A stretch of DNA of 64,000 nucleotides, taken from IMG/VR virus record IMGVR_UViG_3300027674_000001, positions 1-64,000 of that record. One strand, given 5' to 3'. Positions 7,419 to 56,095 of this stretch are shown here, one piece after another. Numbering within the stretch: position 1 is the first letter of the stretch; every line of letters starts with the position of its first letter. The notes under the pieces are model-generated. The model did not search any database. It worked only from the letters and a program-made list of their open reading frames with translations, and was not told the DNA's origin. Both the position numbers and the translations under genes were made by a program. The stretch is from a virus.

Positions 7419-7424
7419 ACAGAC

Positions 7425-9812: not shown

Positions 9813-10493
9813 ATGCCCTACGCTAATATAGAAGTTGGAAGAATGAAAGCCAGAGAGAGGTATCTCAGAAACAAGGAAGCTATTGACTCTGCATCAAGAG
9901 AATACTATTGGAAGAATAAAGAACGAATAAACTCCAAGAGGAGAAAACCAATCCAAAGTGCAAGCGAAAGAGCCGACCATTTAACTGCCAAACTAAGGGC
10001 TAGGTTCCAGAGTTACCTACGTCGTAATAAGGTAACTGGGTGCTTAGAGTGGATGGGCTATAAAGATGTTCACGGATATGGTAAACTGTGGATAGGTAGC
10101 CAGAAAGATGGCACCCTTAGAAAGGAAATGTCTCATCGCGTTGCGTGGATTCTAGCTGGTAAAGAGATTACACCAGAGAAACCATTTATCCTGCACAATT
10201 GCCCATGCGGCGACAATCCCTCGTGTTGCGAGATCGCGCATCTATGGGATGGCACAGCAGCAGACAATAATACCGATAGATCAAGAAAGGACAGAAGTAG
10301 ACGCAGTGAGCTAGGACTCCCTAGAGGTGTTCAACCAAATTACACTCAGAAGGAATCTTACCAAGCCCGTATTCAAGTGGGCAGTAAGCAAATCTACATC
10401 GGATCGTATAGCTCAATCGAAGAGGCTAGGCAAGCTGTAGAAGCTGCCGGCGGATGGAGACAAGAAGAGAGCGGCGGCGATGCCACCACGTAA
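9813..10493 (+). CDS. HNH homing endonuclease with a C-terminal AP2-like DNA-binding domain (free-standing mobile gene)
   Basis: GCLEWMGYKDVHGYG...SHRVAW...LHNCPCGDNPSCCEIAHLWDGTAADN is an HNH_3-type signature. YQARIQVGSKQIYIGSYSSIEEA is AP2-like. The gene is visibly AT-rich relative to its flanks. The start was moved to ATG 9813. Confidence 0.85.
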   Translation: MPYANIEVGRMKARERYLRNKEAIDSASREYYWKNKERINSKRRKPIQSASERADHLTAKLRARFQSYLRRNKVTGCLEWMGYKDVHGYGKLWIGSQKDGTLRKEMSHRVAWILAGKEITPEKPFILHNCPCGDNPSCCEIAHLWDGTAADNNTDRSRKDRSRRSELGLPRGVQPNYTQKESYQARIQVGSKQIYIGSYSSIEEARQAVEAAGGWRQEESGGDATT

Positions 10494-11084: not shown

Positions 11085-11279
11085 ATGGACGCCGTTACTA
11101 GGCTATTGGACTTCCTCGATGCCATCTTTAATTCTAAGGATGAAGATCCGCACGTTATCCCATATGCGTCCAGTTGGGATATCGACGTATACGATAAGTC
11201 ACCTCTAGGCAACGGGTATACGATGTGGGAGACGGGTAAACGGTTGCTCGCGGACGCCAAGGCGGAACTCAACTCATGA
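11085..11279 (+). CDS. Hypothetical protein
   Basis: ATG 11085 is the first non-overlapping start within the listed ORF 11055..11279. Confidence 0.45.
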   Translation: MDAVTRLLDFLDAIFNSKDEDPHVIPYASSWDIDVYDKSPLGNGYTMWETGKRLLADAKAELNS

Positions 11280-11542
11280 AATGCCTATTAGGTACGGACG
11301 ATTGGGAGGTGATCTATCTCACTGTTTGCGTACCTCTCGTACACCTTAACATCGATGGACAGAGCATTCCAGAAGTCGTCCCAAGCGAGCGCTCGCTAAG
11401 CGCGTCGTTCGATACCGTTGAAGCAGATGTGCCCGATGAGTTAGTGGCCAGATACCTTGCCGCTAATAAGGAATTCGAGGAAGTGCAGCACGAGTTGTCT
11501 AATATCTTGGGCGACGATGCACGGGACGCGATATGTCGATAG
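11276..11542 (+). CDS. Hypothetical acidic protein
   Basis: 88-aa ORF with an ATGA overlap with the upstream gene. Confidence 0.5.
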   Translation: MKCLLGTDDWEVIYLTVCVPLVHLNIDGQSIPEVVPSERSLSASFDTVEADVPDELVARYLAANKEFEEVQHELSNILGDDARDAICR

Positions 11543-11552
11543 GGCTACTACC

Positions 11553-12284
11553 ATGTCGATAGACGTACAAGGGCTTAACCAACTCGAGAACCCCGCGCAT
11601 TATTCCACCGCGGAGGGCGACCCCACTTTACATAGTTTGCAACGCTCACGAACGAGACGGCAACCGGGCGAGTGGGAGGAGTTATACTTCCAATTTCTCT
11701 GCGAGGGTAAGACTCGCGAAGTGGCCGCCGCGCTCGCTGGGGTTACTCGCCAGGCTCCATTTCTCCGTCGTAAATCCGATGTGTACTTCGCCGAGATGGA
11801 GTATGCCAGCGTACAGATGGGTACGGCGGATTTATTGAATGATGCGCGGGATGTAATCAAAGAACGGGCGCGCGGGTATGAGAGAGTATTGATCCATCTA
11901 CTATCTCACCGAGGGGTTAACGCTAAGACTATCGTAGAGACGAGTGGACCAAATGGTGGGCCACAACAAGTCAACGTGACAGGTGGCGTGGGTGGCGTGG
12001 GCGCGTTTGACATTGACGCTATCCCAATGCCGATTGATGTTAAGCGAGCGGTGGTCGCGCGCATGGAAGAGATTGAGGCGATGATAGCACCGTACCGGGG
12101 GAACATGAATGGACCAAAGCCAAATGTGGGGCAGCTTGCTACTGGAGATCGCGGTAATGGGGTTAGCATTCTTGGTGGGGTACGTGGGGATGCGATGGAT
12201 AGACAGGAGAAGGTAATCAACGTAGCACAGGCACAGGTTACCGCACAGTCCCGCCCGCGCCCGCTTGTGAGGTTACCGATATGA
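11553..12284 (+). CDS. Hypothetical protein with a helix-turn-helix-like segment
   Basis: ATG 11553 lies just after the upstream stop. GKTREVAAALAGVTRQAPFLR resembles an HTH. The N-terminus MSIDVQGLNQLE resembles the tail motif of the three left-end proteins. Confidence 0.55.
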   Translation: MSIDVQGLNQLENPAHYSTAEGDPTLHSLQRSRTRRQPGEWEELYFQFLCEGKTREVAAALAGVTRQAPFLRRKSDVYFAEMEYASVQMGTADLLNDARDVIKERARGYERVLIHLLSHRGVNAKTIVETSGPNGGPQQVNVTGGVGGVGAFDIDAIPMPIDVKRAVVARMEEIEAMIAPYRGNMNGPKPNVGQLATGDRGNGVSILGGVRGDAMDRQEKVINVAQAQVTAQSRPRPLVRLPI

Positions 12285-12297
12285 GAGCCCGTGAACT

Positions 12298-12645
12298 GTG
12301 CTAGTAATCACACAGAGGAGTATTATACTTGGTGTGTCGAAGGCGTGGGATACCCAATACGGCGGTACTCCCGATGACCCGCACCACGAGCTGATAGGCA
12401 AGCGCCTACGTGAGCTTGATCTGTCTACTGCATCCAAGCGCACCGTAAACAAGATCATCGGCAATGACTCGTGGACTAGGCTGCCTGCTTGTGATGAGTG
12501 TGGACAGAAGAATGTACCTGTGTCTGTGCGCGTAGGCCAGGAGCCTGACTGGGAAAGCCGCACCGCTACCTTGTGTGTGCCGTGTCTATGTAAGGCTGTA
12601 AAGGAGGCAGAGGCTCAACTCTCTGCGATTGCGGCCTATGGCTAA
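12298..12645 (+). CDS. Hypothetical protein with a Cys4 zinc-ribbon-like motif
   Basis: CDECG...CVPCLC pairs. The start is uncertain. Confidence 0.5.
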   Translation: MLVITQRSIILGVSKAWDTQYGGTPDDPHHELIGKRLRELDLSTASKRTVNKIIGNDSWTRLPACDECGQKNVPVSVRVGQEPDWESRTATLCVPCLCKAVKEAEAQLSAIAAYG

Positions 12646-15712: not shown

Positions 15713-16225
15713 ATGAGACACCTAACTCGATTCATTCCCATCGCTCTATCTACTTTCATCCTCACGGTTGCTCTACTCGCGGGCTCTGGGTGCGCTGCCA
15801 CGAATGCAGCCATCCACTCGGCAGCGGGTACCGTGGCGAGCGCCACCACAGCAACAGGGGTAACCGGACAAGTGGGGCAGCTCCAAGTCCTCACTGGCAA
15901 CTTGGACGCTGACTTGTTCCGCGCCCTAATGTCCATCCGTGCGGGCCTCATGCAGTTCTCCGTAGCGGCGGCGGGTGACCCTGCTCTAACCGTTATCGCC
16001 AATAACCAGATAGCTAGGTTTAACTCGGCCGCCGCTGAGATAGTCCATTTCCGGGCGCTGTTTGGGGTGGTGAATGCAGCGGTGAGTGAGGGGGTGAGCC
16101 TACAGGGGCAACCGGTGGACTGGACTCAGCTCACCCCGATCGGGCCGGTGGGGACGGCGCCCCCGGTGAGCCCTGCCACGAGCCCGAGCCCGAGCGCCCC
16201 TGCACCCAAGCCCCCGGGCAGGTAG
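15713..16225 (+). CDS. Putative secreted protein or lipoprotein
   Basis: The N-terminus MRHLTRFIPIALSTFILTVALLAGSGC has a signal-peptide shape with a Cys after Gly. RBS AAGGAG. Pro-rich C-terminus. Confidence 0.55.
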   Translation: MRHLTRFIPIALSTFILTVALLAGSGCAATNAAIHSAAGTVASATTATGVTGQVGQLQVLTGNLDADLFRALMSIRAGLMQFSVAAAGDPALTVIANNQIARFNSAAAEIVHFRALFGVVNAAVSEGVSLQGQPVDWTQLTPIGPVGTAPPVSPATSPSPSAPAPKPPGR

Positions 16226-19153: not shown

Positions 19154-20641
19154 ATGCCTATTGCACCTCGCTCTACTGTCGAGCCTGTGCCCCCTCTTAC
19201 CTACGCGGGTGCTATACAGGAATTATCTCGCGCCGATCAATGGCAAGCATCCCTAGCCCGAGACTCCCTCCGCGATTTCATCAAACAGAATTGGACAATC
19301 GTAGAGCCCATTAAGAAGCTTATCTGGAACTGGCATCACTATGTATTCTGCGATGTGTTAGAACAGATTACCGCTGGCAAGATACGACGTATCGTAATTA
19401 ACGTGCCCCCAGGTAGCTCGAAAAGTCTTTTTGCATCCGTTTTTTGGCCAGCGTGGGAATGGGCTAAAGATCCATCTCTCCGCTACCTAACCGCGTCCTA
19501 TACCGATGCCAACACCATCCGAGATAACCGTAACGTTAGATTCATCGTTACCTCGGATAACTACAAAAAGTATTACTGGGCCAACCCCACCCACGTAGAC
19601 TTGGTGGCACTCGACGCTGCCCAATCCGCCAAGATTCGATTTGACACCACCGCTAAGGGTTGGCGTATCGCTACCTCTGTCGGCGGCATCGGTACCGGCG
19701 AGCACCCTGACAGAATTATTATCGATGATCCGTTGAAGGCTAAGGATGCCGACTCCGATGTAGAGTTAGCCGCGTGTCAAACATGGTTCGACGGTACTAT
19801 CTCCACACGTGGCGCGAGCGAACGAATCGCGATAGTGGTAATCATGCAGCGGTTACATAGGAGAGATCTAAGCGGGTATCTATTGGGTAAGGGTGGCTGG
19901 GATCACTTAATGCTCCCGATGAGATTCGATCCCAAGCGGGCCGATCCAAGGGACATGAGAACCCAACCGGGCGAATTATTGTGGCCAGAGTTGTGGACGG
20001 AAGCGAAGGTGCGACAAGAGGAGATAGACCTAAACCAATTTGGGGCCTCGGGGCAGCTACAACAAGATCCAGTACCAGCCGGTGGTGGCCTATTCAAACG
20101 AGAGTGGTTTACATTCGTGGATCAATCACCAGCCCGGTGCCGCCGATGCCGAGGATGGGATACCGCAGACACCCCCGGCGGAGGCAACTGGACGGTTGGA
20201 ACTAGGTTAGGGTACGATGATGAAATGGGCGACACCTACATAGAGCACAACATCCGAGGGCAATGGGGGCCAGGTGAGGTATCTACTAATATCAAGATGG
20301 CAGCCGAAATGGACGGGGTAGCATGTCTTATTCGCGAGGGCAGCGGGAGTGGTAAGGCTACAACCGAGGCGAGGGGTAAGATGCTAGCCCGGTACGATTA
20401 CGCCGCTGCCCCCGAGACTACCAAGACGGGTAATAAGATTCAACGAGCTAGCCCATTCCGTGCGCAGTGTGAGCTGGGTAAGGTTAAGATAGTGAGAGGA
20501 CCGTGGAATGAAATGTATATTGATGTGTTGTGTTCGTTTCCTGTTGGGGTTGTGGATGATGACGTGGACAGTACGAGCAACGCGTATAATGGACTCGTGG
20601 GAGATATGGAAGCAATGGATGGATTAGGGGTGACATGGTGA
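19154..20641 (+). CDS. Terminase large subunit
   Basis: Walker A-like VPPGSSKS, Walker B-like RIIIDDP, then the IVVIMQRLH segment and a C-terminal nuclease-like region typical of TerL. ATG 19154 is the first start after the upstream stop. Confidence 0.85.
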   Translation: MPIAPRSTVEPVPPLTYAGAIQELSRADQWQASLARDSLRDFIKQNWTIVEPIKKLIWNWHHYVFCDVLEQITAGKIRRIVINVPPGSSKSLFASVFWPAWEWAKDPSLRYLTASYTDANTIRDNRNVRFIVTSDNYKKYYWANPTHVDLVALDAAQSAKIRFDTTAKGWRIATSVGGIGTGEHPDRIIIDDPLKAKDADSDVELAACQTWFDGTISTRGASERIAIVVIMQRLHRRDLSGYLLGKGGWDHLMLPMRFDPKRADPRDMRTQPGELLWPELWTEAKVRQEEIDLNQFGASGQLQQDPVPAGGGLFKREWFTFVDQSPARCRRCRGWDTADTPGGGNWTVGTRLGYDDEMGDTYIEHNIRGQWGPGEVSTNIKMAAEMDGVACLIREGSGSGKATTEARGKMLARYDYAAAPETTKTGNKIQRASPFRAQCELGKVKIVRGPWNEMYIDVLCSFPVGVVDDDVDSTSNAYNGLVGDMEAMDGLGVTW

Positions 20642-20657
20642 AAGGAGAACTACTTCG

Positions 20658-20846
20658 ATGGACAACGTTGAACGGTTGAAACTGTACCCCCATCTGGTCG
20701 ATGAGTTGATAGCGCAAGTGGACGATTTACTTATCAACGAGGATTGCCCATGTGCGCGTACACATCGCCACCCATGCCCACGATGTAAGGTAACTATCGT
20801 GCAAGCACAGGAATTACTTCGGCGGCTCTGGTACAGGCGAGGGTAA
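20658..20846 (+). CDS. Hypothetical small protein
   Basis: 62-aa ORF after TerL with CPCA...CPRC Cys pairs. Confidence 0.45.
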   Translation: MDNVERLKLYPHLVDELIAQVDDLLINEDCPCARTHRHPCPRCKVTIVQAQELLRRLWYRRG

Positions 20847-20854
20847 TCTGGTCC

Positions 20855-20884
20855 TTGACACGGGCGCGGGCTCCGTGCTACGCT
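20855..20884 (+). promoter_or_regulatory. Sigma70-type promoter P5 (conserved family, 3' arm degenerate)
   Basis: TTGACA 20855-20860, 18 nt, TGC-TACGCT with the -10 at 20879-20884. Confidence 0.6.
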
Positions 20885-20892
20885 CGCCCACA

Positions 20893-20979
20893 ATGACCCT
20901 GCGACGGTTCTTCGGCAAGTCTCCCCCGCTGGTAGGGCGCCCCTCTCCCGTCCTGATGACCAGCGGGGGAGCTTTTTAA
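20893..20979 (+). CDS. Candidate 28-codon leader micro-ORF spanning the terminator hairpin
   Basis: ATG 20893 lies 9 nt after the P5 -10 element. The ORF reads through both arms of the hairpin and stops at TAA 20977-20979, inside the T-tract. Purely positional evidence. Confidence 0.25.
   Translation: MTLRRFFGKSPPLVGRPSPVLMTSGGAF
20921..20977 (+). terminator. Rho-independent terminator/attenuator
   Basis: 13-bp stem CTCCCCCGCTGGT 20921-20933 / ACCAGCGGGGGAG 20959-20971, followed by CTTTTT. Confidence 0.7.
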
Positions 20980-21008
20980 TTTCACCCCGTCAACCCTTGT
21001 CAATCCGC

Positions 21009-21422
21009 ATGCGCATCCCCGACATCAACGTAGTCGTCAACTTCTCCGAAGAGGACCGGGATTTAATCCGCTCGGTACTCATCGGGCTAACCAGACTGGA
21101 GATCCTAATGTCAAAGAATACCGATGCACTCGCCGCCTTGGAAGCCATTGAAACCACTCTCGCCGCCGATGAGGCTCTAGAAGAGAGCGACCTTACCGCG
21201 TTGACCGCTGAGGTTACCGCGTTGAAGGCTCAGCTGGCCACCGCCACCGCCGAAGATAACTCCGCTGAGATCGCCACGACTACGGCCGCGATTACTGCAT
21301 TGGATGCCAAGATCAAGGCGAGTATTGCAGCGGCGCAGGGAGCACTACCGCCAGCGCCACCCGTGACCCCTCCTGCTACAATATTGCCGCAGGGTATTGA
21401 CAAGGGGCGCGCTCCGGCCTAG
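21009..21422 (+). CDS. Ala-rich coiled-coil protein
   Basis: ORF with ATG 21009 (TTG 20997 is an alternative start). Long Ala/Leu/Thr heptad-like region and a Pro-rich tail. Confidence 0.5.
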   Translation: MRIPDINVVVNFSEEDRDLIRSVLIGLTRLEILMSKNTDALAALEAIETTLAADEALEESDLTALTAEVTALKAQLATATAEDNSAEIATTTAAITALDAKIKASIAAAQGALPPAPPVTPPATILPQGIDKGRAPA

Positions 21423-21425
21423 AAT
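21397..21425 (+). promoter_or_regulatory. Sigma70-type promoter P6
   Basis: TTGACA 21397-21402, 17 nt, TAGAAT 21420-21425. It lies inside the 3' end of the upstream ORF. Confidence 0.6.
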
Positions 21426-21432
21426 GGATCAC

Positions 21433-21804
21433 ATGAGCAGCTTCCTTTCCGCCGCCGCCGAGCAGCACCTCGCCCGCCTACAGCGAATCGTCTCCGCGGA
21501 GCGCATGTTGCGAGAGTACCCTGATCGATGCATGGCAATGAGGATGGCACTAGGGATGAAACGTCCTGCGCTCGCGGAAGCATTGGGAGTGACAGATGAC
21601 ACCATCGCGAACCGAGAGACGGGACGCCATTCACCTGTAGGGGAAGCAGCGGTGGCTCATCTTGAATACCTAGAGCGAGCCATCGAGATAACCCATACAC
21701 CTAGAGCAAGGGTCGAGGCAATCTATCGGGAGCTTTACATGGCGCGCGGTGGACCACCTCGAATACCGCGAGAGAGAACGAGCTACAATGAATGCTCCCG
21801 ATAA
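21433..21804 (+). CDS. XRE-family helix-turn-helix regulator, probably on a leaderless mRNA
   Basis: MKRPALAEALGVTDDTIANRETG is a classic XRE HTH. ATG 21433 lies 8 nt after the -10 element and has no Shine-Dalgarno sequence. Confidence 0.65.
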   Translation: MSSFLSAAAEQHLARLQRIVSAERMLREYPDRCMAMRMALGMKRPALAEALGVTDDTIANRETGRHSPVGEAAVAHLEYLERAIEITHTPRARVEAIYRELYMARGGPPRIPRERTSYNECSR

Positions 21805-22063
21805 ATCCTCCCTCGCCGCAGAACTAGACGCGGTGGAACGTGAGCGTAGATCCCTTCACGGCGGCACTCGATTAATCGGGTGGGTTCCTGACACCCGAAA
21901 CCAGGACACTCACACTCACCCTGATCGCTTAGTGCTGTCGGATCGCAACGGTAAGCCGGTCCATAAGGAGCAAGTCATCCGATCGCGCGATGGGAGACTG
22001 TACCGGATCGCGGGTGATGGTAGCCTACGGAGAATTAAACCCAACAGTGGGGGTAAGCCATAG
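21788..22063 (+). CDS. Hypothetical protein
   Basis: ATG 21788 within the listed ORF 21749..22063. It overlaps the regulator's 3' end by 17 nt. Confidence 0.45.
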   Translation: MNAPDKSSLAAELDAVERERRSLHGGTRLIGWVPDTRNQDTHTHPDRLVLSDRNGKPVHKEQVIRSRDGRLYRIAGDGSLRRIKPNSGGKP

Positions 22064-22419
22064 TGCCATTCATCCAAATCGACATGAGTGCTTTCTCTGG
22101 ACTCACTGGCAACTATAAAACCTACGTGGCGGCGTTCGTCGGCATCGTGGGTAATGCCCTCGCGGTGTTCCATGTCGTCACTCTCACGCCTGATCAACTT
22201 CTCTCGGCTAACGCGGTCGTCGGGATGGTGGTCGCTATATTCCTCCGAATGGGTGTGAAGAAGGCACAGGTGGCGGCGGCGGATGCCACGAGCGCCGCGA
22301 ATCGGGCCGCCACTACAGTAGCGATGGCCGCTAATTCAATACCAATACCTAAACCAGTGTCCACCGCTCTCCCCTCTCTCGCTGCTGACATGACAGAGCA
22401 TGCAGGTACCAAACTGTAA
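22063..22419 (+). CDS. Membrane protein with two predicted TM helices (holin candidate)
   Basis: Hydrophobic stretches YVAAFVGIVGNALAVFHVV and AVVGMVVAIFL followed by a charged tail. The holin call is positional and weak. Confidence 0.45.
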   Translation: MPFIQIDMSAFSGLTGNYKTYVAAFVGIVGNALAVFHVVTLTPDQLLSANAVVGMVVAIFLRMGVKKAQVAAADATSAANRAATTVAMAANSIPIPKPVSTALPSLAADMTEHAGTKL

Positions 22420-22439
22420 ACTGTAAGGGGTGCGCACTT

Positions 22440-22871
22440 ATGAGGCATACTATGCGAATTGTCACCATGGTTTCCACTGTGCTCCTACTTGGCATCGTCA
22501 CCCTTGGTTGTCGCTCGATCAACCCCGGGCCTCACTCCTACTGGATTGGCAGCGTCAAGGCCGATTGCGCTGCCCTCTACGACCCCACCACCAATCTGGC
22601 TTGGCACTGCGGTCATCCCCCGCCGCGCGCGGGCGCTGGCCACGCCTGCGGCCCCTCTTCGGACGAAACAGCCCAGCTGCAAGCTGAGCTGCTGGCACTG
22701 AGCAGCAAGCCCGGGGCGCCTTCCACCACGGGTGACGCCATGCGGACGCGCATCATTGAGCAGGCGCTCTCCGGCCCGAGATTCTGCCCCAGCCCAGATG
22801 TCTTCTGCGGGTACCCTGTCGATTGTAAACTCAATACGGCCGGGGTGGTGAACGTGGGGGCTAAACCGTGA
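22440..22871 (+). CDS. Cys-rich lipoprotein
   Basis: The signal peptide MRIVTMVSTVLLLGIVTLGC has lipobox L-G-C. RBS AAGGGG. The mature part contains about 7 Cys. Confidence 0.6.
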   Translation: MRHTMRIVTMVSTVLLLGIVTLGCRSINPGPHSYWIGSVKADCAALYDPTTNLAWHCGHPPPRAGAGHACGPSSDETAQLQAELLALSSKPGAPSTTGDAMRTRIIEQALSGPRFCPSPDVFCGYPVDCKLNTAGVVNVGAKP

Positions 22872-23219
22872 TCCTCATTCCGGCCTGCATCCTCTGCGCT
22901 CAGGTGTCGATCGGCAAAATCATTTTGCTGCCGCGACCAGCGTGCTTCACCTTCCGCTATGGTGGCGTCGAACTGCAAATTTGCGAGCATGGCGGTGCCC
23001 AGCAGGAGCAGGCGCAGGCCGCGCCGGAGGAAGGGCGATGAGGGCCACCTACGGACCTTTCCTGCCGTCCAAGACGAGACGGCGCTCGCGCAAGGCGATA
23101 CCGCGGAGGGCCGCTCCTGCGGTTGTCACGCTGGCGTTCCTGGCCGAGGCGTTCCCGCGCGAGCGCCGTGCGCTTACCGCTTGCAGGCGCGGTCTGGGCG
23201 TTCAGACGGGATACGAGCC

Positions 23220-23639
23220 ATGATGACCCGCGCCCCCTGCCTGCTCGCCCTCGCCGCCGCGTTGCTCGCCGGGTGTGCATCCACCCCTTGCTCTAATCCC
23301 ATACTATCCCACTCGCGCCATATCGATATCTCCTCTGGCACTGATATCCCAGGAGTAGTCTTGGGTGTGGTAGTCAACATGTGCGTGGAAACGGAGCGGG
23401 CTAATTGGGGTGCAGGTAAGCAAGAAGGCCGCCCCCACTGCTGGGTAAAGGTGAAGGTAGCACGGACGACGGGCGATCTAGGTTCTTGGTTTCGTGATTC
23501 CCGGTGGTTTGGCAATGACTGTAGCGGTGTGCCATTTAACCCTGGTGATCTCGTGTGGGTGCCGCTAGGTGCCGGTGTTATAACCCATAGGCGATACGAT
23601 TTTGACGCTATGGCCGCGCACGAAGCAGGCCACGAATAG
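23220..23639 (+). CDS. Lipoprotein ending in an HEAGH motif
   Basis: MMTRAPCLLALAAALLAGC has lipobox LAGC. ATG 23220 lies within the listed ORF 22959..23639. The last residues are AAHEAGHE. Confidence 0.55.
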   Translation: MMTRAPCLLALAAALLAGCASTPCSNPILSHSRHIDISSGTDIPGVVLGVVVNMCVETERANWGAGKQEGRPHCWVKVKVARTTGDLGSWFRDSRWFGNDCSGVPFNPGDLVWVPLGAGVITHRRYDFDAMAAHEAGHE

Positions 23640-23655
23640 GGCAGGGTCCCCAGCA

Positions 23656-24174
23656 ATGACGGGCACGCAACGTACAAAGCGCACAGGGCGCCGTGTTATC
23701 GATACCACTAGCACTGGAATACCTGTGGACGCTAGTGGCGGTCCAACCATTGACCCCACCGCCAATGTCCTCAACTTGGTAGAGGCGGCTATCCAACGCC
23801 AGGACGACCTCCGCAATCTTACCGAGAGATACGCTAAGGATTTATCGGATCTCCGCGAACGGTATCAGGAGAAATTAGCTGAGGCCGAATCTAAGCGGGT
23901 AGACGCCAACGCTCTCGCAGAATCGCGCCGAATAGACGCCTTGCTCGCTGCTAGCCAGAACGCTGTAACCCTTGCCTCAATCGAGGGTAAAGGTACTGCT
24001 GCCGCTCTCGCCGAGCGAGTGGATGCCTCAGCTAAAGCCCTAGCCCAAGGTAGCGGACGTGATCTTGGTATGGGTATGGGCATGAAAATGGTTATTGGGT
24101 TTGTGGCGTTATTCGGGACCCTGATGACTCTCGCCGGTGCGGGTGTTCTACTGTGGACGATATTACACAAATAG
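23656..24174 (+). CDS. Coiled-coil protein with a C-terminal transmembrane anchor
   Basis: ATG 23656. Charged heptad-like central region. C-terminal MVIGFVALFGTLMTLAGAGVLLWTIL. Confidence 0.55.
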   Translation: MTGTQRTKRTGRRVIDTTSTGIPVDASGGPTIDPTANVLNLVEAAIQRQDDLRNLTERYAKDLSDLRERYQEKLAEAESKRVDANALAESRRIDALLAASQNAVTLASIEGKGTAAALAERVDASAKALAQGSGRDLGMGMGMKMVIGFVALFGTLMTLAGAGVLLWTILHK

Positions 24175-24184
24175 GCACAGTACA

Positions 24185-24511
24185 TTGGACTCTTATAAAT
24201 CCCGCTGGTGTAAGTGCCATCGATGCCCTCAAGGCCAACCCCCTTGCATCGGTGCGGACTGTCTATGGTTCGGGGATAATCTAGTCAAGTCCATCGTAGC
24301 CGCAGAGGATGCTGACAGGGGAGAACGAGAGCGAGTCAACCGGGGCGGGGCCAACACTAGTGTACGCCAAGCCAACGAAGCGCGACGTGCCTCTGCTTTA
24401 GCTCGTGCTCGTACTCAAGCAGAGGATAGCGGATTCCAAGTGGAGCGGGGCCGAGATGGCGAGTATATTGTAACGGAGAAGGATGGGAGTAAGCGAGTGG
24501 TGAAGATGTGA
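24185..24511 (+). CDS. Hypothetical basic protein, start uncertain
   Basis: TTG 24185 is the first in-frame start after the upstream stop; the listed ORF begins at 24137. Cys-rich N-terminus and Arg/Ala-rich middle. Confidence 0.4.
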   Translation: MDSYKSRWCKCHRCPQGQPPCIGADCLWFGDNLVKSIVAAEDADRGERERVNRGGANTSVRQANEARRASALARARTQAEDSGFQVERGRDGEYIVTEKDGSKRVVKM

Positions 24512-25332
24512 TACCTGATAAGGATAAGGTTCATTGTGTTATGTTCTCGGGTGGAATAAGCTCGTGGGCCGCTGCTTGGCGCGTTCGTGAACGCTATCCC
24601 GACTGTGGTATTATTGCCCTGTTCGCAGATACCAACATGGAAGACGAGGATTTGTACCGATTTCTGGATGAGGCAGCCGACTCTGTGGGGGCGTGTCTTA
24701 TAAAGATATCTGATGGCCGCACTCCTTGGGAAGTGTTCCGAGACGTGAGGTTCTTGGGAAATAGTAGAGTAGACCCATGCTCCAAGATACTAAAGAGAGA
24801 CTTACTAGATAAGTGGAGAAATGACAACTTGGAACGAGACGCCACTATCCTATACGTCGGCATAGACTGGACAGAGCAGCACAGATACCAGAATGTTAAG
24901 GGGCGCATGTACCCATGGAGAGTAGATGCACCCCTATGTGAGCCACCATATTTCAGTAAGAACCGAGCCCGTGATTTACTTCTAGAAATAGGTATCCAGC
25001 CCCCACGATTGTACAGCTTGGGGTTCTCTCATAACAACTGTGGCGGATTCTGTATTAAGGCTGGACATGCTCACTTTGCTAATCTATTACGGACAATGCC
25101 AGATAGGTATGCTTACCATGAGGGTAAAGAAGAGGAAATTAGACAACAGCTCGGCAAAGATGTGTCTATCCTGGTTGATAGGGCAGGCGGCACTAAGAAG
25201 CCCATGACACTCAAAGACTTTCGCGAGAGAATTACTTGCGGGGAGGATTATGACAGATATGACATTGGCGGTTGTGGGTGCTTCTCTGGCCCAGTAGACG
25301 CAATCCCTAGCGAGTCCCTACCGTTGACCTAG
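24508..25332 (+). CDS. PAPS-reductase/PP-loop ATP-pyrophosphatase family protein
   Basis: N-terminal PP-loop VMFSGGISSWAAAW, then the conserved-looking D..R.LGNSRVDPCSK and Cys clusters NNCGGFC and GGCGCF. Confidence 0.75.
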   Translation: MIPDKDKVHCVMFSGGISSWAAAWRVRERYPDCGIIALFADTNMEDEDLYRFLDEAADSVGACLIKISDGRTPWEVFRDVRFLGNSRVDPCSKILKRDLLDKWRNDNLERDATILYVGIDWTEQHRYQNVKGRMYPWRVDAPLCEPPYFSKNRARDLLLEIGIQPPRLYSLGFSHNNCGGFCIKAGHAHFANLLRTMPDRYAYHEGKEEEIRQQLGKDVSILVDRAGGTKKPMTLKDFRERITCGEDYDRYDIGGCGCFSGPVDAIPSESLPLT

Positions 25333-25468
25333 CCTCCACCCCTACATCTTGCGAGGGGTAGAATCCTACCCACTCCGTGGTACAACTTGCCCCCGAGGAC
25401 CTATCTCCTTGGGAGCCCGCACCTACTCACCGTCTCGCCTCTCCGGGTCCACCCGGGGTACCCGAGCC

Positions 25469-27274
25469 ATGGCTGCCCGGGATGCCCACGAGCTATCCCT
25501 TGCCCACGGTACCGCTGCTGGCCCTGGCCCAGAGGACCCTACCGCCTCCGCTACCCTCCGTTCGGCCGAGTCCGATCTCCTAGGTAGGGCGCGCCTCGCC
25601 GAGCGGTTCTCTGCTCTCCGGGACGGCATCGGGTACGGTGGCCGGCGCGATTACTACCGTCTCCTAGGCTACAAGGAACGTCTACTCCCGCAGGATTACC
25701 GAGCGCGGTATAAGCGGGGGGGTATCGCCGAGCGGTGTGTTGAAGCCTACCCCAAGGCTACGTGGTCAGGTGGCGCCTCGATCGTCGAAGACCCCGATCC
25801 CAATAACGTTACTGAGTTCGAGGACAAGACTACTACCCTCTGTGATCGTCTCGCCGTCTGGAAGGAGATCATCAAACTAGATATCCAAATGGGGCTAGGC
25901 CGGTACGCAGCTCTCCTTATCGGTACGGGTGACAAGGATCTAGAGGAGCCCCTGAAATCCGGCTCTCTCTCCGGCCCTGAAGACATTATCTACATCACCC
26001 CGCTTACCGAGGACCGAGCCCAAATCCAGCAGAGCATTACCGACACCACCGATCCACGGTTTGGCCTACCTGAGTTCTACATGTGTTATCTTGGTATCCC
26101 GGCCTATTCCATGGTTGAGGATGACATTGGCCCATACTCTGGCGCCTCTCATGCTGTAACCAAGCGAGTCCATCACACGCGAATTATTCACGCGGCCGAG
26201 CAGTGTCTATTTGATAATGTATTCGGTAAGCCCCGCCTCCGTGCCGTGTGGAACTATCTAGATGACTTGTTAAAGGTGTCCGGTGGTGGCGCTGAAGCCT
26301 CCTGGCAGCGGGTAGATCCCGGTATCCACGTGAACATCGACAAGGACCTCCGCATAGGGAAGGAGGAGCTTAAAGCCCTGCGCGAGATGATTGAGGAGTA
26401 CCAGCACGGGGGTATATCGCGTCTCATCCCCACTCGTGGTGCCGATGTTAAGATGTTGAACGCCCTCGTGGACAAGTGGGGGCCTAACCAAGATGCCGTC
26501 ACTCGGTTGATTTGCGCCGTGCTCGCTATACCCCATCGCGTACTTATGGGGAGCGAGAGAGGGGAGATGGCGTCAACCCAAGACCGGGATAACTGGTCCG
26601 ACCGTGTAGCGGAGAGACGGCAGGAGTTTGGTATCCCACTAGTCCGTGCATTCATTAGTCGTCTACAGGAATTTGGCGCGCTACCTGATGTGGATGACTA
26701 TGAGATTCAGTGGCCCGATGAGGAGGAATTAAACGAGCAAGAGAAGGGAGCCCTACTTCTCACTTACGCCCAAGCCAACCACAACAACGGGGAAGTAATC
26801 ATAACCGCCAACGAGATGCGCGATCAAGTACTAAGTCTACCTCCGCTTGTGGTAGAACCCGCCACTGATGCCAACGGTAACCCGATCGACCCCACCCAAG
26901 TAGCGGCAGATGGGTCTACTGATGTACCGGGCCAAGGTAATAAGCCACTCAACAATACCCCTACATCGGGTGATACTGCGGGGGCTCCGGGTACTCCGGG
27001 CGCACCAGGTACAGGCACAGGTTCGGGCGGGCCTACTGCCACCGATCAACAGCGGATGGTGCAACCGGATCTAGTTGTTGGTAACCCTGGTAGCCCTGGC
27101 AAGGTTAAGTCCTCGTCCTCGTCCTCGTCCTCATCTGTAATCCGGGTAAGTGCCATCCGGTTTGCATCTGGCAAGACAATCCCCATCGCCAAGATTCGAT
27201 CGCCGGAAGTGCGCCGCCTAATTGCCACCAAGCTATCCGTACAGCGTAAATTACGACGCAACGGGCTACTGTAA
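25469..27274 (+). CDS. Portal protein (DUF1073-like)
   Basis: Size, position upstream of the protease/scaffold and capsid genes, and the segment YRLLGYKERLLPQDYRARYKRGGIAERCVEAYPKATW typical of DUF1073 portals. ATG 25469 was preferred over the listed 25349. The C-terminus has Gly/Pro-rich and poly-Ser tracts. Confidence 0.75.
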   Translation: MAARDAHELSLAHGTAAGPGPEDPTASATLRSAESDLLGRARLAERFSALRDGIGYGGRRDYYRLLGYKERLLPQDYRARYKRGGIAERCVEAYPKATWSGGASIVEDPDPNNVTEFEDKTTTLCDRLAVWKEIIKLDIQMGLGRYAALLIGTGDKDLEEPLKSGSLSGPEDIIYITPLTEDRAQIQQSITDTTDPRFGLPEFYMCYLGIPAYSMVEDDIGPYSGASHAVTKRVHHTRIIHAAEQCLFDNVFGKPRLRAVWNYLDDLLKVSGGGAEASWQRVDPGIHVNIDKDLRIGKEELKALREMIEEYQHGGISRLIPTRGADVKMLNALVDKWGPNQDAVTRLICAVLAIPHRVLMGSERGEMASTQDRDNWSDRVAERRQEFGIPLVRAFISRLQEFGALPDVDDYEIQWPDEEELNEQEKGALLLTYAQANHNNGEVIITANEMRDQVLSLPPLVVEPATDANGNPIDPTQVAADGSTDVPGQGNKPLNNTPTSGDTAGAPGTPGAPGTGTGSGGPTATDQQRMVQPDLVVGNPGSPGKVKSSSSSSSSSVIRVSAIRFASGKTIPIAKIRSPEVRRLIATKLSVQRKLRRNGLL

Positions 27275-32973: not shown

Positions 32974-33386
32974 TGGCCTTCCCCGTCGAATTACTCCGGC
33001 TCGGCGTTGGGATCGCGTCCCACCTAACCGCTGGCGTCCAGCAACCCGTGACTATTGAACCGTGGATCGGTCAAACCGCGCACGGACCATCGTACGGTGC
33101 GCCTGTCACATTCGATGGTCAATCCTCGGGCCACCCTATGCCCTTGGTAGACCTCACCACTAAGCAACGGGTAGTCAAGGGCCAATGGATCAACGTTGCC
33201 GGGACACTTACATTTCTTGGCGACGTAGCTCCCAACGGTGCTCCCGGTAGATTAGAGCCAATCGATACCCGGGACCGGATTACCCTCGCGGATGGTACCC
33301 GGTGGCCTATAGTCCAATCAGGGGGGTTTAATGATCCGGGTACAGGGCGCCCGTTGGCCCCCGAAGTGTGGCTAGGGGCAAGATGA
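32973..33386 (+). CDS. Hypothetical structural-module protein (head-closure candidate by position)
   Basis: 137-aa ORF with a TAATG overlap. Confidence 0.5.
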   Translation: MAFPVELLRLGVGIASHLTAGVQQPVTIEPWIGQTAHGPSYGAPVTFDGQSSGHPMPLVDLTTKQRVVKGQWINVAGTLTFLGDVAPNGAPGRLEPIDTRDRITLADGTRWPIVQSGGFNDPGTGRPLAPEVWLGAR

Positions 33387-33925
33387 TGGCTAAGCTAAGT
33401 GAATTTAACGAGATAGTGTGGAATGATCCACGGTTGCCTATGCACCCAGAGATGCATTTCTCTGTGTCTAAGGCAATGATATACGAGCCTGTTATCGCGC
33501 TAGATAAAAGTAGAATACTAGTAGCGGATACAGCCCGTATCGACGCCTTTTGTAAGCTACATGGTGGAGATGGTATCTATATTGGCGATCGTGTACACAT
33601 CTCATCGTTCTGTGATCTAAATATAGGTGGTGGGTATCTGATCTTGGAAGATGGTTCAACTCTTTCCCCTGGTGTCATGATCGTAACCGGATCTAGTGTT
33701 CCTGCACCCGGCCGATCGTGCTCGGCAATCTCGCCTGATGTGGTGATATCCAAGTCATTCGTTCGCGTAAATAAGAACGCGACCATATTCACAGGAGCAA
33801 TTATCCTCCCAGGTGTAACCATTGGGGAGGGTGCAGTAGTCGCGGCCGGTGCCATGGTTAACCACGATGTCCCGGATGGTGACACCTGGGGTTGCGTTCC
33901 AGCGCGGAGACTCCACCTAGTATGA
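33383..33925 (+). CDS. Left-handed beta-helix (hexapeptide-repeat) acetyltransferase
   Basis: Hexapeptide periodicity IGDRVHISSFCDLNIGGG...IFTGAIILPGVTIGEGAVVAAGAMV, as in LacA/WbbJ-type O-acetyltransferases. Confidence 0.8.
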   Translation: MMAKLSEFNEIVWNDPRLPMHPEMHFSVSKAMIYEPVIALDKSRILVADTARIDAFCKLHGGDGIYIGDRVHISSFCDLNIGGGYLILEDGSTLSPGVMIVTGSSVPAPGRSCSAISPDVVISKSFVRVNKNATIFTGAIILPGVTIGEGAVVAAGAMVNHDVPDGDTWGCVPARRLHLV

Positions 33926-34632
33926 ATATCGCGGTTGTCTCCCTTTTCCGTAACATGGTCGGACGTATTGATCCGTATATGGCGCAAATCGATACCCTAC
34001 AGCGCCACGTATGGCTCGATTCTACCGATCACACGGTTAGAGTAATAGCGGTAACTGGTGATAACACGGACGCTACCGAGGATGAATTACAGGTGTCTGC
34101 AAATCGTTATCGTGTGCCACTGTCCATCGTCAAGTGTAATCATGGGCTCCAAGTATTTCCGTCGTGCGAGGACCCCAATAGACTCGCGGCGCTTACCAAG
34201 GTATTGATGGCTGGTATGCGAGCTGTAAGCCATGACAAGTACGGAGACGATGTTGTCCTATATGTTGAGTCTGATTTGATATGGAATCCGCACCAAGTGG
34301 GATCGATCATAGATATGGCGTATCGGCGTGATGGCTACTTTGATATTATCGCGCCCATGATCTTCTGTGGTGATGGCTCTCAGTTCTATGATGTGTGGGG
34401 GTTTAGGCACGATGGTGCTAGGTTCTCATGGGATGCTCCATATACCCATGATCTACTGTACGGTGGAATAACTGAGCTAGATAGTGTGGGTTCGTGTTTC
34501 GCGTGTAGGGCGAAAGTGGCAGAGAAGGTTACCCCTATTGGTAAACTGGCCCTTGTATCGTGGTGTAACGGAGCGCGGGCGCAAGGGTATCAAGTCGGGG
34601 TCGCGCAAGGGTTTCGCGTGAGTCATCCATGA
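33922..34632 (+). CDS. Putative GT-A-like nucleotide-sugar transferase
   Basis: Rossmann-like N-terminus MNIAVVSLFRN and a DxD-like YVESD. Sits among glycosyltransferase genes. Weak by sequence alone. Confidence 0.4.
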   Translation: MNIAVVSLFRNMVGRIDPYMAQIDTLQRHVWLDSTDHTVRVIAVTGDNTDATEDELQVSANRYRVPLSIVKCNHGLQVFPSCEDPNRLAALTKVLMAGMRAVSHDKYGDDVVLYVESDLIWNPHQVGSIIDMAYRRDGYFDIIAPMIFCGDGSQFYDVWGFRHDGARFSWDAPYTHDLLYGGITELDSVGSCFACRAKVAEKVTPIGKLALVSWCNGARAQGYQVGVAQGFRVSHP

Positions 34633-34913
34633 ACGTGATAGCTACTCATATACTTGACAAGATAGACGCCGCGGATACTCTCGGCATCCCTGGTGCCTTC
34701 CAATTCGAGGCAAACGATAAAGGGATATTTTATGTTTGCCCGTGCGGTTGTCAATCATTGGGGTTTCTTGGATTTCGTGGACTTGAGGACAAGGAGCGGC
34801 CATCTTGGGAGTGGGATGGGAACAGGGAGAAGCCAACGCTATCGCCCAGTATATTGCGGCGGGCTTGCGGATGGCACGGGTTCTTACGTGGTGGTGCATG
34901 GGAGTCTTGTTAA
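34629..34913 (+). CDS. Small zinc-binding protein (DUF6527-like)
   Basis: CPCGC...W.WDGN.EKPTLSPSI...C.WHGFLR.G pattern. The family name is from memory and unverified. Confidence 0.45.
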   Translation: MNVIATHILDKIDAADTLGIPGAFQFEANDKGIFYVCPCGCQSLGFLGFRGLEDKERPSWEWDGNREKPTLSPSILRRACGWHGFLRGGAWESC

Positions 34914-34940
34914 CGTAATACTAAGGGAGGGATATAACCG

Positions 34941-35861
34941 ATGCGAGTACATGTCAAGCCGACCGGGTTACATAGCAGAGCCATGGTGCGGGTATCTAAT
35001 GCACTAACCCGTTACGCGCCCACGGGGATAGAGATAGTAGATGACCCGAGCCCGAGTGAATGTGATCTAGTGGTGTTACATGTGATCGGGCGGGATGCGA
35101 TTACGGTAGCTGAGCAGATGAATCAATGCGAGCAGAGATGGGCGGTGATCCAATATTGCCTAAAAACGGCGGGGTTTAGCCGAGAGACTTGTAAAGACTG
35201 GTTTGAGTTGTGGCGCGGCGCTGAGTGCTTGTGGAGCTACTATGATCTATCCGATGCGGCTAGCGTGGACGGATGGGATTTCTACTACGCTCCCCTCGGT
35301 CTAGACGATGCATTCCTATCTCGCTCCCACATCTCCTCCCCATCTTCTCGCCCATTCATCCTCACGTCCGGTTATGTCTCTGGCCCCGGTGCAGAACCCA
35401 TTGCCGAGGTGTGGGAGGCCGCGCGTAGACTGGGGATTAATGCCGTGCATATTGGCCCTAAAGTAGTAGAGGGGATGACAACGTATCCACCCGATTGGGA
35501 CGCGCGCCACCAGATATCCGATGGGGAGTTAGCCGAGTTGTATGCGCGGGCTACTTGGGTGGCCGCCCTTCGACATGTAGAGGGATTCGAGTTGCCCGCG
35601 GCGGAAGGACTCGCGTGTGGCGCTCGCCCCATCGTATTTTCTCAGCCCGCGCTATGGCACTGGTATGGTGACCATGCGATATACGTCCTCGATCAAAGCG
35701 GGGAGCCTCTGATTCAAGAACTGTGCAAGGTAATGAGGTATGTACCGGAGCCTGTAAGCGCCAAGGAGCACGAACAGGTAGTACGGAAATTCAACTGGGA
35801 GCGAGTGTGTACCGGGTTCTGGGCGCGAGTGCAAGCTAGCATAGGCGAGGTAGCCGCGTGA
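34941..35861 (+). CDS. GT-B fold glycosyltransferase (GT4-like)
   Basis: C-terminal signature VEGFELPAAEGLACGARPIVF matches the E(G)FG.P..EA.A.G.P motif of GT4 enzymes. Confidence 0.6.
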   Translation: MRVHVKPTGLHSRAMVRVSNALTRYAPTGIEIVDDPSPSECDLVVLHVIGRDAITVAEQMNQCEQRWAVIQYCLKTAGFSRETCKDWFELWRGAECLWSYYDLSDAASVDGWDFYYAPLGLDDAFLSRSHISSPSSRPFILTSGYVSGPGAEPIAEVWEAARRLGINAVHIGPKVVEGMTTYPPDWDARHQISDGELAELYARATWVAALRHVEGFELPAAEGLACGARPIVFSQPALWHWYGDHAIYVLDQSGEPLIQELCKVMRYVPEPVSAKEHEQVVRKFNWERVCTGFWARVQASIGEVAA

Positions 35862-36244
35862 ATTTCTCATTTGACCTAGACGGTACGATCACCGCCCACA
35901 CTGCGGTATTCGTGGCCTTTGGTAAAGCTCTCCGGGCAGCGGGGCACCGTGTCACGATACTGACAGGTATTGACTTGGGCACCTTCCATGGCCGGCGCAC
36001 CACAAAATATCCAGAACTCGCGGACACGTCTTGGTATGACGATGTTGTGACCGCAGATGACTACAACGCGAACGAGCGAGCGTTAGCGGCACAGGTAATT
36101 AATGGCAATCTAGATAATCACATTCTCGTGGGTATGTTCAAGCGGAGGATATGCCGAGAGCGTGGTATCGCGGCCCACTTCGACGATGACATATCCCATG
36201 TAAGCCCAGAACCCGGCACTGCATTATTCGGGGTGATCCGGTGA
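35858..36244 (+). CDS. HAD-superfamily hydrolase-like protein
   Basis: The N-terminal FSFDLDGTIT is HAD motif I (DxDGT). Confidence 0.6.
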   Translation: MNFSFDLDGTITAHTAVFVAFGKALRAAGHRVTILTGIDLGTFHGRRTTKYPELADTSWYDDVVTADDYNANERALAAQVINGNLDNHILVGMFKRRICRERGIAAHFDDDISHVSPEPGTALFGVIR

Positions 36245-55928: not shown

Positions 55929-55933
55929 GTCTG

Positions 55934-55963: not shown

Positions 55964-56000
55964 GGACTCCCATTCGTCCACTACACCACTGCGGCCGCCG

Positions 56001-56020: not shown

Positions 56021-56060
56021 CTGGTCAGCACCGGGGCACGTGGGCGCGTCTTGGGGGGCC

Positions 56061-56089: not shown

Positions 56090-56095
56090 CCTCCT

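Follow-up and report, generated by a model that had tools for sequence, protein, structure and literature searches.

In a virus assembled from a soil metagenome, the genes for the large terminase subunit (TerL) and the portal protein are separated by 4.8 kb holding ~11 open reading frames (ORFs), all on the + strand, and this locus raises the question of what function the intervening block serves. The DNA analyzed, referred to here as the window, is positions 1 to 64,000 of IMG/VR record IMGVR_UViG_3300027674_000001, which corresponds to 64 kb out of a ~69.7-kb contig (metagenome ERR1700674, PRJEB8420) that is available in several assemblies; the block occupies positions 20,642 to 25,468 (Table 1). 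The original prediction, made from the sequence alone, had interpreted the block as a moron, superinfection-exclusion, or conversion module, with an unusual lysis system as the fallback, and it is the fallback that homology and gene context favor. On that basis, the TerL-portal interval is probably a variable slot for the lysis genes of a phage lineage, and the block of this phage a lysis module with add-ons, namely, an XRE-family regulator gene with its promoter, a terminator after the TerL gene, and a Cys-rich ORF with a PP-loop enzyme gene. The block can be divided into two leader genes, an envelope module (22063-24174) in which the predicted membrane proteins of the window cluster, the XRE gene with its promoter P6, and the coupled Cys-rich ORF and enzyme gene, which stand outside lysis.

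Lysis genes in the TerL-portal slot of related phages

Matches to phrog_38, PF06381, and phrog_146 bore out the predicted placement of TerL and portal 4.8 kb apart. A search with the portal protein identified 161 relatives at E ≤ 1e-20, and gene context was examined for five of these. In locus L005, whose portal is 72% identical to that of the window and whose flanking genes are 45 to 86% identical, the slot contains, in order, a homologue of the Ala-rich coiled-coil protein of the block, a homologue of its protein with two transmembrane (TM) segments, a Phage_lysozyme gene, a protein with one TM segment and a coiled coil, and two further ORFs; the part downstream of the lysozyme includes further membrane proteins. 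The slots of L007 and L048, with portals 46% and 40% identical to that of the window, contain a coiled-coil homologue, a counterpart of the 91-residue "DGSLRR" protein, a Hydrolase_2 endolysin, proteins with one TM segment and a coiled coil, and other small ORFs, with a DNA methyltransferase in addition in L048. Recognizable endolysins (GH24 lysozyme or Hydrolase_2) and membrane proteins are present in the slots of all three. In L006, the slot measures 1.5 kb, and in L047 and L052, the latter a contig from an Acidobacteria metagenome-assembled genome (MAG), TerL and portal are almost adjacent; the slot is therefore variable. The premise that TerL and portal are usually adjacent held for L047 and L052 but not for the rest of the lineage examined.

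The first genes of the slot are common to the relatives, while its remaining content is swapped rather than identical. Homologues of the coiled-coil protein follow TerL in L005 (44% identity over 57 residues), L048 (64% over 61 residues), and L007 (50 to 53%). The C-terminal motif of the 91-residue protein recurs, with weak similarity, in a 115-residue protein of L007 (E 0.004) and a 173-residue protein of L048 (E 0.001), both of which occupy the same slot position. No counterparts of the XRE gene, either lipoprotein gene, the tail-anchored protein gene, or the PAPS-reductase-like gene were found in the slots of L005, L007, and L048, and these loci yielded no XRE homologue. Collectively, these data indicate that the slot is lineage-wide, variable, and mosaic and that, where filled, it typically carries lysis genes.

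These comparisons bear directly on the interpretation of the block as an accessory (moron) module, in which the XRE regulator would drive, or simply accompany, the envelope proteins (the 2-TM protein, both lipoproteins, and the tail-anchored protein). These proteins would keep other phages from adsorbing or injecting DNA, or mask the receptor at release in a T5 Llp-like manner, and the substrate of the enzyme would be a molecule of the host or the phage. Roles in exclusion are known for phage lipoproteins, T5 Llp and Cor among them. In keeping with such a module, the XRE gene and P6 are found in this phage only among the relatives compared, the two lipoproteins are orphans, with the gene for the first located in a GC-rich island, homologues of the PAPS-reductase-like enzyme are scattered as accessory genes in other phages, and no endolysin was found in the contig. 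However, the 2-TM and tail-anchored genes have relatives outside this phage, including ones beside endolysins, and no exclusion protein was named by Pfam, PHROGs, or NCBIfam, a search of a defense-system library not having been made. Because the slot and its first genes recur in relatives, three of which carry recognizable lysis genes there, this explanation is unsupported for the block as a whole, and we consider it unlikely. A setting of lysogenic conversion is likewise doubtful, since the precomputed Pfam matches of the contig included no integrase or other lysogeny gene. A moron-like origin is reasonable for the XRE gene, the orphan GC-rich lipoprotein genes, and the PAPS-reductase-like gene. 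The original prediction had stated that the same block with lysis functions in related phages would speak against it; the relatives come close to this, with swapped content and with lysis functions read from domains.

In GTDB genomes, the proteins closest to the portal are encoded by prophages; these reside in a Vicinamibacterales MAG (43% identity), on contigs of megabase size, and in other Acidobacteriota MAGs. We have moderate confidence that the host belongs to the Acidobacteriota. Acidobacteriota hosts are diderm; if this assignment is correct, an outer-membrane lysis step would be needed.

A holin candidate with a homologue encoded beside a lysozyme

As predicted, the 118-residue product of 22063-22419 has two hydrophobic segments, located at residues 22 to 40 and 47 to 65, separated by a loop of ~7 residues and followed by R/KK after the second segment. 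Its length of under 150 residues and two TM segments correspond to the size and topology of a class II holin, the topology being that given by the positive-inside rule. The protein is 75% identical over 72 residues to the 102-residue product of L005 5383-5691, the gene for which overlaps the Phage_lysozyme gene by 4 nucleotides (nt), and the window protein is therefore a holin candidate. A second homologue, encoded at 824-1144 of the 1.5-kb contig L010, is 69% identical. There, a gene whose product is 70% identical to the tail-anchored protein lies directly upstream of the 2-TM gene. Since the two genes are adjacent in L010 at another place in the genome, they appear to travel together as a pair.

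A family of tail-anchored long-helix proteins among lysis genes

The 172-residue product of 23656-24174 belongs to an unannotated family. A HMMER search recovered 818 cluster representatives at E ≤ 1e-3, of which 128 were at E ≤ 1e-10. Members are 150 to 250 residues long and share the motifs IDPTxNVLxLV..RQDDLR, AESRRID, and LAERV..SA..LA. A C-terminal TM segment is present in 59 of 62 members; the median tail past it is two residues long, K or R occurs in the tail of 85% of members, and no member has an acidic tail. An AlphaFold2 model built from a 62-sequence alignment (predicted local distance difference test [pLDDT] score, 87) consists of a continuous helix (residues 34 to 132), a short linker, and a TM helix (residues 143 to 171). 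This model upholds the earlier description of a coiled-coil protein with a tail anchor and portrays a rod, not an enzyme.

No known family was recovered for these proteins. Pfam and PHROG scans of 27 members gave isolated, unrelated single matches, none of them recurring; the family profile matched no PDB chain at E ≤ 1; and Foldseek comparison of the model with viral structures gave nothing below E 2.8. Searches by tblastn with the window protein and two other members found no match in 50,697 GenBank phage records, and in GTDB genomes, pattern matches to the profile were obtained but none was confirmed.

The genomic context of the family was examined in 33 IMG/VR loci obtained by a pattern scan, with the same-strand neighbors scanned as one set. 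Family genes usually follow ORFs of 600 to 1,200 residues, which are taken to be tail genes without annotation. Tiny 2-TM ORFs often flank them, and small multi-TM ORFs are enriched 7.5-fold within 700 bp (P = 1.5e-5). Peptidoglycan hydrolases were the commonest class of Pfam matches among the neighbors (Peptidase_M15_4 three times, VanY twice, and M23, Hydrolase_2, GH25, and Rv2525c-like), and the four most frequent PHROGs were all endolysins (phrog_465 four times; phrog_15351, phrog_2649, and phrog_6523 twice each), with others present as well. Lipoproteins satisfying a strict pattern are enriched within 1.2 kb of family genes (P = 0.015) and are adjacent in 5 of 26 loci by the strict test. 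In L029, the gene for an M15 L-Ala-D-Glu peptidase begins 4 nt downstream of the family gene (PDB 2vo9, E 3e-22) and is followed by an overlapping lipoprotein gene. The ORFs just downstream of members in L041, L043, and L014 had no PDB match. We conclude that the tail-anchored family is a component of lysis-gene neighborhoods.

The region of L029 around the family gene (4426-7527) is a compact cassette encoding, in order, proteins of 108 residues (one TM segment), 149 residues (two TM segments), and 203 residues (two TM segments), the tail-anchored protein of 203 residues, the M15 endolysin of 163 residues, the overlapping lipoprotein, and a protein of 76 residues (one TM segment).

The position of the tail-anchored gene 16 nt from the second lipoprotein gene (23220-23639) raises the alternative that the two products form a reversed or split spanin, like T1 gp11 cut in two. 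The lipoprotein in the outer membrane and the tail-anchored protein in the inner membrane would then make contact across the periplasm and bring about membrane fusion. The length of the 100-residue helix, ~15 nm as calculated from the model, is of periplasm-spanning scale, the block encodes no canonical inner-membrane spanin (i-spanin), lipoproteins are enriched beside family members, and the short, basic, never acidic C-terminal tail would also fit an N-out/C-in orientation. However, a signal peptide or N-terminal hydrophobic segment was found in 0 of 62 members, so that the export of a charged domain of ~140 residues would have no explanation; in most family loci, no lipoprotein gene is adjacent, and L029 has other candidate membrane proteins. 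We regard this arrangement as very improbable. A programmed frameshift fusing the lipoprotein to the tail-anchored ORF was also considered and was rejected; both frames are open over 23602-23639, and no credible slippery site was seen on reading the sequence.

Orphan lipoproteins at the position of the endolysin

The original prediction of two lipoproteins with good lipoboxes stood for the product of 23220-23639, which has the canonical box LLAGC, and was weakened for that of 22440-22871, whose box, VTLGC, fits a PROSITE-type pattern when checked by eye and fails a stricter regular expression. A search of 5.8 billion proteins with the first lipoprotein returned only the protein itself, and there was no match in Pfam, PHROGs, NCBIfam, or the PDB. 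The second had no match in IMG/VR patterns, GenBank phages, the PDB, Pfam, PHROGs, or NCBIfam, and a single-sequence AlphaFold2 model of it was unusable (pLDDT, 36.6). The mature proteins would be ~120 residues long, are not Pro-rich, and have no i-spanin partner. The first lipoprotein gene, directly after the 2-TM gene, occupies the position of the lysozyme gene in L005.

No endolysin domain was detected in the block by Pfam, PHROG, NCBIfam, and PDB searches, and no muralytic domain was found elsewhere in the 69.7-kb contig by precomputed Pfam matches for all called genes and PHROG scans of 38 ORFs. Within these Pfam and PHROG scans, the earlier statement that no endolysin is recognizable thus holds for the whole contig. 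The endolysins of L005 and L048, used as seeds against viral loci, gave no match.

One explanation for this gap is that an orphan lipoprotein is itself a new wall-degrading enzyme, anchored by lipid and inactive until the 2-TM protein depolarizes the membrane, in the style of pinholins and signal-anchored endolysins. The placement of the first lipoprotein gene exactly where L005 has its lysozyme and the lack of any other endolysin candidate in the genome point in this direction. Endolysins that are secreted or tethered to the membrane have been described, among them the Enc34 type, whose TM helices are C-terminal (PMC8943055), and a stretch of the second lipoprotein (NDCSG...GDLVWV...H) faintly recalls, by eye, the motifs of NlpC/P60. 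The spacing of these motifs is, however, wrong for that fold, neither sequence nor profile similarity to hydrolases was detected, and the unusable structure model and the lack of homologues provide no basis for judging catalytic residues. The chances of this explanation therefore appear slim.

A GC island (0.63 to 0.665, compared with a window mean of 0.55; +2.5 to +2.8 standard deviations) spans the first lipoprotein gene and the 350 nt after it. The region at 22.8 to 23.4 kb is among the top 8 of 318 windows of the GC scan, and comparable excursions occur elsewhere, so that the island is weak evidence of a separate acquisition or foreign origin. Between the lipoprotein genes, the ambiguous stretch 22872-23219 also contains an N-terminal extension of the next ORF and a perfect 13-nt inverted repeat (23079-23091/23157-23169). 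Positions 22872-23225 gave no indication of a structured RNA, with a fold z score of -1.05, no better than shuffled sequences, and no Rfam match; nor did the rest of the block match Rfam. Outside the block, a third lipoprotein-like ORF lies at 15713-16225 (MRHLTRFIPIALSTFILTVALLAGSGC...) and has no family match.

Evidence weighing against a lysis module, and a proposed mechanism

Several observations weigh against the assignment of the block to lysis. The lack of a recognizable endolysin in 69.7 kb means that a defining component of a lysis cassette is missing, and a canonical i-spanin, with an N-terminal TM segment and a periplasmic coiled coil, is absent from the ORFs of the block. The lipoproteins are large and not Pro-rich for outer-membrane spanins (o-spanins), and their orphan status and atypically high GC content fit a recent acquisition as accessory genes. 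The 2-TM protein has only two relatives among the 5.8 billion proteins searched and no match to a holin family in Pfam, PHROGs, or NCBIfam. The 2-TM gene of L010 is followed not by an endolysin gene but by a homologue of window 33922-34632, which belongs to the structural and sugar-modification region; in the window, the 2-TM gene is followed by an orphan lipoprotein gene, not an endolysin gene. As for the tail-anchored family, a recognizable endolysin lies within 2 to 3 kb in a minority of loci, endolysins make up at least 7 of 111 neighboring ORFs (with the VanY matches assumed to overlap those of M15_4), and no conserved partner family was found among the neighbors, which are highly diverse. 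We know of no established lysis role for a cytoplasmic helix of 100 residues.

If the block does serve lysis, the following sequence of events can be proposed. The terminator after TerL would dampen read-through, and the 91-residue and 2-TM genes would be translationally coupled. The 2-TM hairpin would build up in the inner membrane and, upon late triggering, collapse the membrane potential. The tail-anchored rod, with its ~15-nm helix, might, as a timer or co-holin, assist the 2-TM protein on the cytoplasmic side of the membrane. The lipoproteins, exported independently by Sec and Lsp, would already be outside the inner membrane, where they could disrupt the wall or outer membrane, or else act on receptors or protect progeny at release. 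Expression of the XRE protein would be driven by P6, and the palindrome just ahead of the -35 element of this promoter may be its binding site.

Features of the block

The coordinates of the block and its borders are given in Table 1. A codon-usage log-likelihood test, trained on 13 confident genes, compared the annotated frame of each ORF with the other two frames. The annotated frame scored highest for every ORF of the block; the 62-residue ORF and the XRE gene scored weakly, and the small ORFs in 22872-23219 had scores close to or below zero. Start and stop codons overlap at 22063 and 24508. A small ORF with Cys pairs likewise follows TerL directly in L006, with no detectable homology to the 62-residue ORF of the window.

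Table 1. Features of the TerL-portal block and its borders (window coordinates; aa, amino acids; GC3, GC content at third codon positions)
Feature	Position	Strand	Basis or remarks
TerL, left border of slot	19154-20641	+	phrog_38, E 1e-77; Terminase_6C; 52% identical to L048 TerL
ORF, 62 aa, CxC...CxxC, zinc-ribbon-like	20658-20846	+	Best frame but weak in codon test; no family match
P5, weak promoter-like site, TTGACA-18 nt-TACGCT	20855-20884	+	-35 perfect; -10 3/6
Intrinsic terminator with 25-nt loop region, CTTTTTAATTT	20921-20982	+	Inverted repeat; terminator scan
Ala-rich coiled-coil protein, 137 aa	21009-21422	+	First lineage-conserved slot gene; family matches sub-threshold only
Palindrome, 22 bp, CCTGCTACAATATTGCCGCAGG	21372-21393		Inverted repeat, within end of coiled-coil ORF
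P6, sigma-70-type promoter, TTGACA-17-TAGAAT	21397-21425	+	11/12 consensus positions
XRE-family helix-turn-helix (HTH) regulator, 123 aa from ATG 21433	21433-21804	+	HTH_31; phrog_2328/8
"DGSLRR" protein, 91 aa, C-terminal motif ...DGRLYRIAGDGSLRRIKP	21788-22063	+	Stop overlaps 2-TM start by 1 nt
2-TM membrane protein, 118 aa, holin candidate	22063-22419	+	Predicted N-in/C-in hairpin
Putative lipoprotein, Cys-rich, 143 aa, VTLGC	22440-22871	+	AAGGGG 10 nt upstream of ATG 22440; GC3 0.73
Ambiguous GC-rich stretch (0.65-0.665)	22872-23219		Two weak overlapping ORFs, 22868-23041 and 23038-23223
Lipoprotein, 139 aa, canonical lipobox LLAGC	23220-23639	+	Sequence; orphan
Tail-anchored long-helix protein, 172 aa	23656-24174	+	Unannotated family; AlphaFold2 model
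Basic ORF, 108 aa, CxCxxC...C...C	24185-24511	+	Best frame in codon test; stop overlaps next start (GTGA)
PP-loop/PAPS-reductase-superfamily enzyme, 274 aa	24508-25332	+	phrog_424; conserved Cys motifs
Portal, right border of slot	25469-27274	+	PF06381, E 2e-27; phrog_146, E 1e-55

Regulatory elements

The original prediction had placed a promoter with an attenuator (P5) after TerL and a second promoter (P6) ahead of a leaderless XRE gene. P6 proved to be a near-consensus promoter and is the sole + strand site of such quality in the 64 kb, where 0.125 would be expected by chance. P5 is at most a weak promoter-like site, given its poor -10 element and its failure in the promoter-scan criteria. 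A phage-specific promoter motif common to P5 and P6 was also considered and was rejected, the pattern being matched by P5 itself only. The supposed attenuator is instead a strong ordinary intrinsic terminator that could equally just end the TerL transcript. Its stem is a perfect, GC-rich 13-bp repeat (20921-20933/20959-20971) followed by a T tract, and its fold (-43.5 kcal/mol; z score, -3.03) was equaled in stability by none of 200 shuffled sequences.

The XRE assignment was supported by an HTH_31 match above threshold (E 1.3e-6; 29 bits against a cut-off of 27). Public pipelines start this gene at ATG 21424. A leaderless mRNA is plausible because ATG 21433 lies ~8 nt past the -10 element of P6, and the earlier claim is retained at that strength. 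The palindrome ends 4 nt upstream of the -35 element of P6 and is a candidate operator for the XRE protein.

The Cys-rich ORF and PP-loop enzyme

The gene at 24508-25332 matched phrog_424 (E 5e-49 over residues 4 to 261) and PDB entry 21fy "PptA" (21fy_C, E 9e-9). The Pfam family PAPS_reduct (PF01507) scored 14.4 bits, below its cut-off of 22.5, and no NCBIfam family was matched at E ≤ 0.1, models for CysH and DndC being assumed to be in that library. The prediction of a PAPS-reductase-like enzyme is thus borne out by phrog_424 and 21fy and falls short of the Pfam threshold. The motifs FSGGxxSW, NNCGGxC, and GGCGC, which are common to three phage homologues, fit a PP-loop enzyme, which probably carries an Fe-S cluster. 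The literature on "PptA" yielded only proteins unrelated to the PAPS-reductase type.

Homologues 42 to 50% identical are encoded by Mycobacterium, Bradyrhizobium, Microcystis, and Bacillus phages. Three of these loci were inspected, and all lie in nonstructural regions, outside lysis and packaging modules; one has a NifU-like Fe-S assembly gene as a neighbor and one a cytosine methyltransferase gene. A small ORF is found directly upstream in all three, and these ORFs resemble neither each other nor the Cys-rich ORF of the window. For the latter, the predicted frame was upheld and the start moved, TTG 24185 (108 residues) being more likely than 24137 from a reading of the sequence; the ORF has no family match and is missing from public pipeline calls. 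In Rhizobium phage RHph_Y52, the gene that precedes the portal gene was considered as a homologue of the enzyme and was rejected.

DndC and BrxP are described as superfamily members that phosphorothioate DNA (PMC12914056). Because these proteins belong to the superfamily, a role of the pair in nucleic acid modification is a reasonable guess, and the analogy weakly suggests that the Cys-rich ORF and the enzyme act in this way. A 2024 reappraisal of Dnd systems in Nucleic Acids Research contained nothing on stand-alone phage enzymes. The pair is an accessory add-on, outside lysis.

Elsewhere in the window, 1185-2627, 5994-7418, and 7425-8525 encode two DNA methyltransferases (N6_N4_Mtase and DNA_methylase) and a UDG-domain protein, the last with a faint DNA-polymerase exonuclease signal and adjoining a family A polymerase gene. 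Together with the PAPS-reductase-like enzyme, these genes suggest a heavy investment in DNA modification.

Other features of the phage and its relatives

Locus L003 is identical to window 15469-37274. The window showed no DNA-level similarity to any of the 50,697 GenBank phage records, among which the best TerL match was 39% identical, in Rhizobium phages; an IMG/VR pattern scan with TerL gave no match. No tRNAs were found in the window, and the + strand carries all of its long ORFs.

The TerL of L005 (3499-4881) belongs to another family than that of the window (19154-20641), only the last ~25 residues (...DGLG(L/V)TW) being alike. The L005 type recurs in L006, L047, and L052, and the window type in L048; the difference between L005 and the window is a terminase swap within one lineage. 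In the prophage of a Vicinamibacterales MAG (L051:10001-12369), the match to the portal falls into two parts, 10001-10234 and 11134-12369, which implies that ~900 nt, perhaps an intron, an intein, or the gene of a homing endonuclease, are inserted within the portal gene.

Within the structural module, 33368-38211 forms a sugar-modification island encoding a Hexapep acetyltransferase-like protein, a 236-residue protein, a BubE-domain protein, and a 656-residue GT4/GT2 glycosyltransferase; similar genes are present in L006 and L048, and the island suggests that virion proteins are glycosylated. Directly 3' of the tailspike gene, 55555-56530 contains two small genes that are the sole minus-strand calls and that face a second HTH regulator (56095-56530), an arrangement that looks like a divergent regulatory switch region.

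Significance and comparison with known systems

The wedge between TerL and portal is best described not as an exotic insertion but as the lysis-gene slot of this lineage, to which a regulator and an enzyme have been added. Read in this way, the block is a lysis cassette whose location is unusual yet typical of the lineage, which lacks a recognizable endolysin and carries a member of an undescribed family. That family is sizeable and unannotated and has a simple architecture, one helix of ~100 residues on a C-terminal anchor. Should the tail-anchored protein be a lysis factor, it would improve the calling of lysis cassettes in metagenomic phages and add a component beside holin, endolysin, and spanin. 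The genome, which looks complete at 70 kb and has a probable diderm soil host, contains no recognizable endolysin and has orphan lipoproteins at the place of the endolysin in its relatives. These lipoproteins are a concrete place to look for new muralytic activity. A bolder proposal, rather unlikely as it stands, is that this phage and its uncultured relatives lyse with uncatalogued parts, the tail-anchored family being a new lysis class (a holin partner or timer, or the arm of a reversed spanin) and an orphan lipoprotein a new muralytic type that is exported before the holin acts.

As in the lambda S-R-Rz/Rz1 and phage 21 pinholin cassettes, the block has a small 2-TM protein gene and clustered genes for membrane proteins and lipoproteins on one strand, and the cassettes of its relatives contain GH24 or Hydrolase_2 endolysins and 1-TM coiled-coil proteins. 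The block differs from lambda and phage 21 in having no recognizable endolysin, no canonical i-spanin, large orphan lipoproteins, and an extra tail-anchored protein; its location also differs, between TerL and portal instead of downstream of the tail genes, and it has a regulator inside and an enzyme gene at its flank.

The window enzyme shares the SGG-type PP-loop motif and the Cys clusters of DndC, BrxP of BREX type 4, phrog_424, and PptA. Unlike in Dnd and BREX systems, no DndA, DndD, DndE, or BREX partners are encoded nearby, and the coupled Cys-rich ORF is the sole partner.

Like the tail-anchored protein, the Enc34 and M4Lys endolysins have their sole membrane segment at the C terminus and no N-terminal signal; Enc34 ORF39 combines a globular catalytic domain of lysozyme fold (PHA02564) with two C-terminal helices (PMC8943055). 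Assignment of the tail-anchored protein as an endolysin of the Enc34 type was rejected on fold, the AlphaFold2 model showing a single helix and one TM segment. The lipobox and C-terminal TM segment that the unimolecular spanin T1 gp11 combines are found in the window on two ORFs, in different frames and 16 nt apart. Unlike T1 gp11, these are separate polypeptides, the second of which has no export signal, and a frameshift fusion is unsupported.

ElaB, YqjD, and YgaM (DUF883) have a cytoplasmic helical N-terminal domain, a single C-terminal TM segment, and a very short basic tail, as does the tail-anchored protein of the window. A DUF883 model was matched by 0 of the 27 family members scanned; the window protein is longer, has conserved motifs of its own, and occurs in the context of viral lysis genes.

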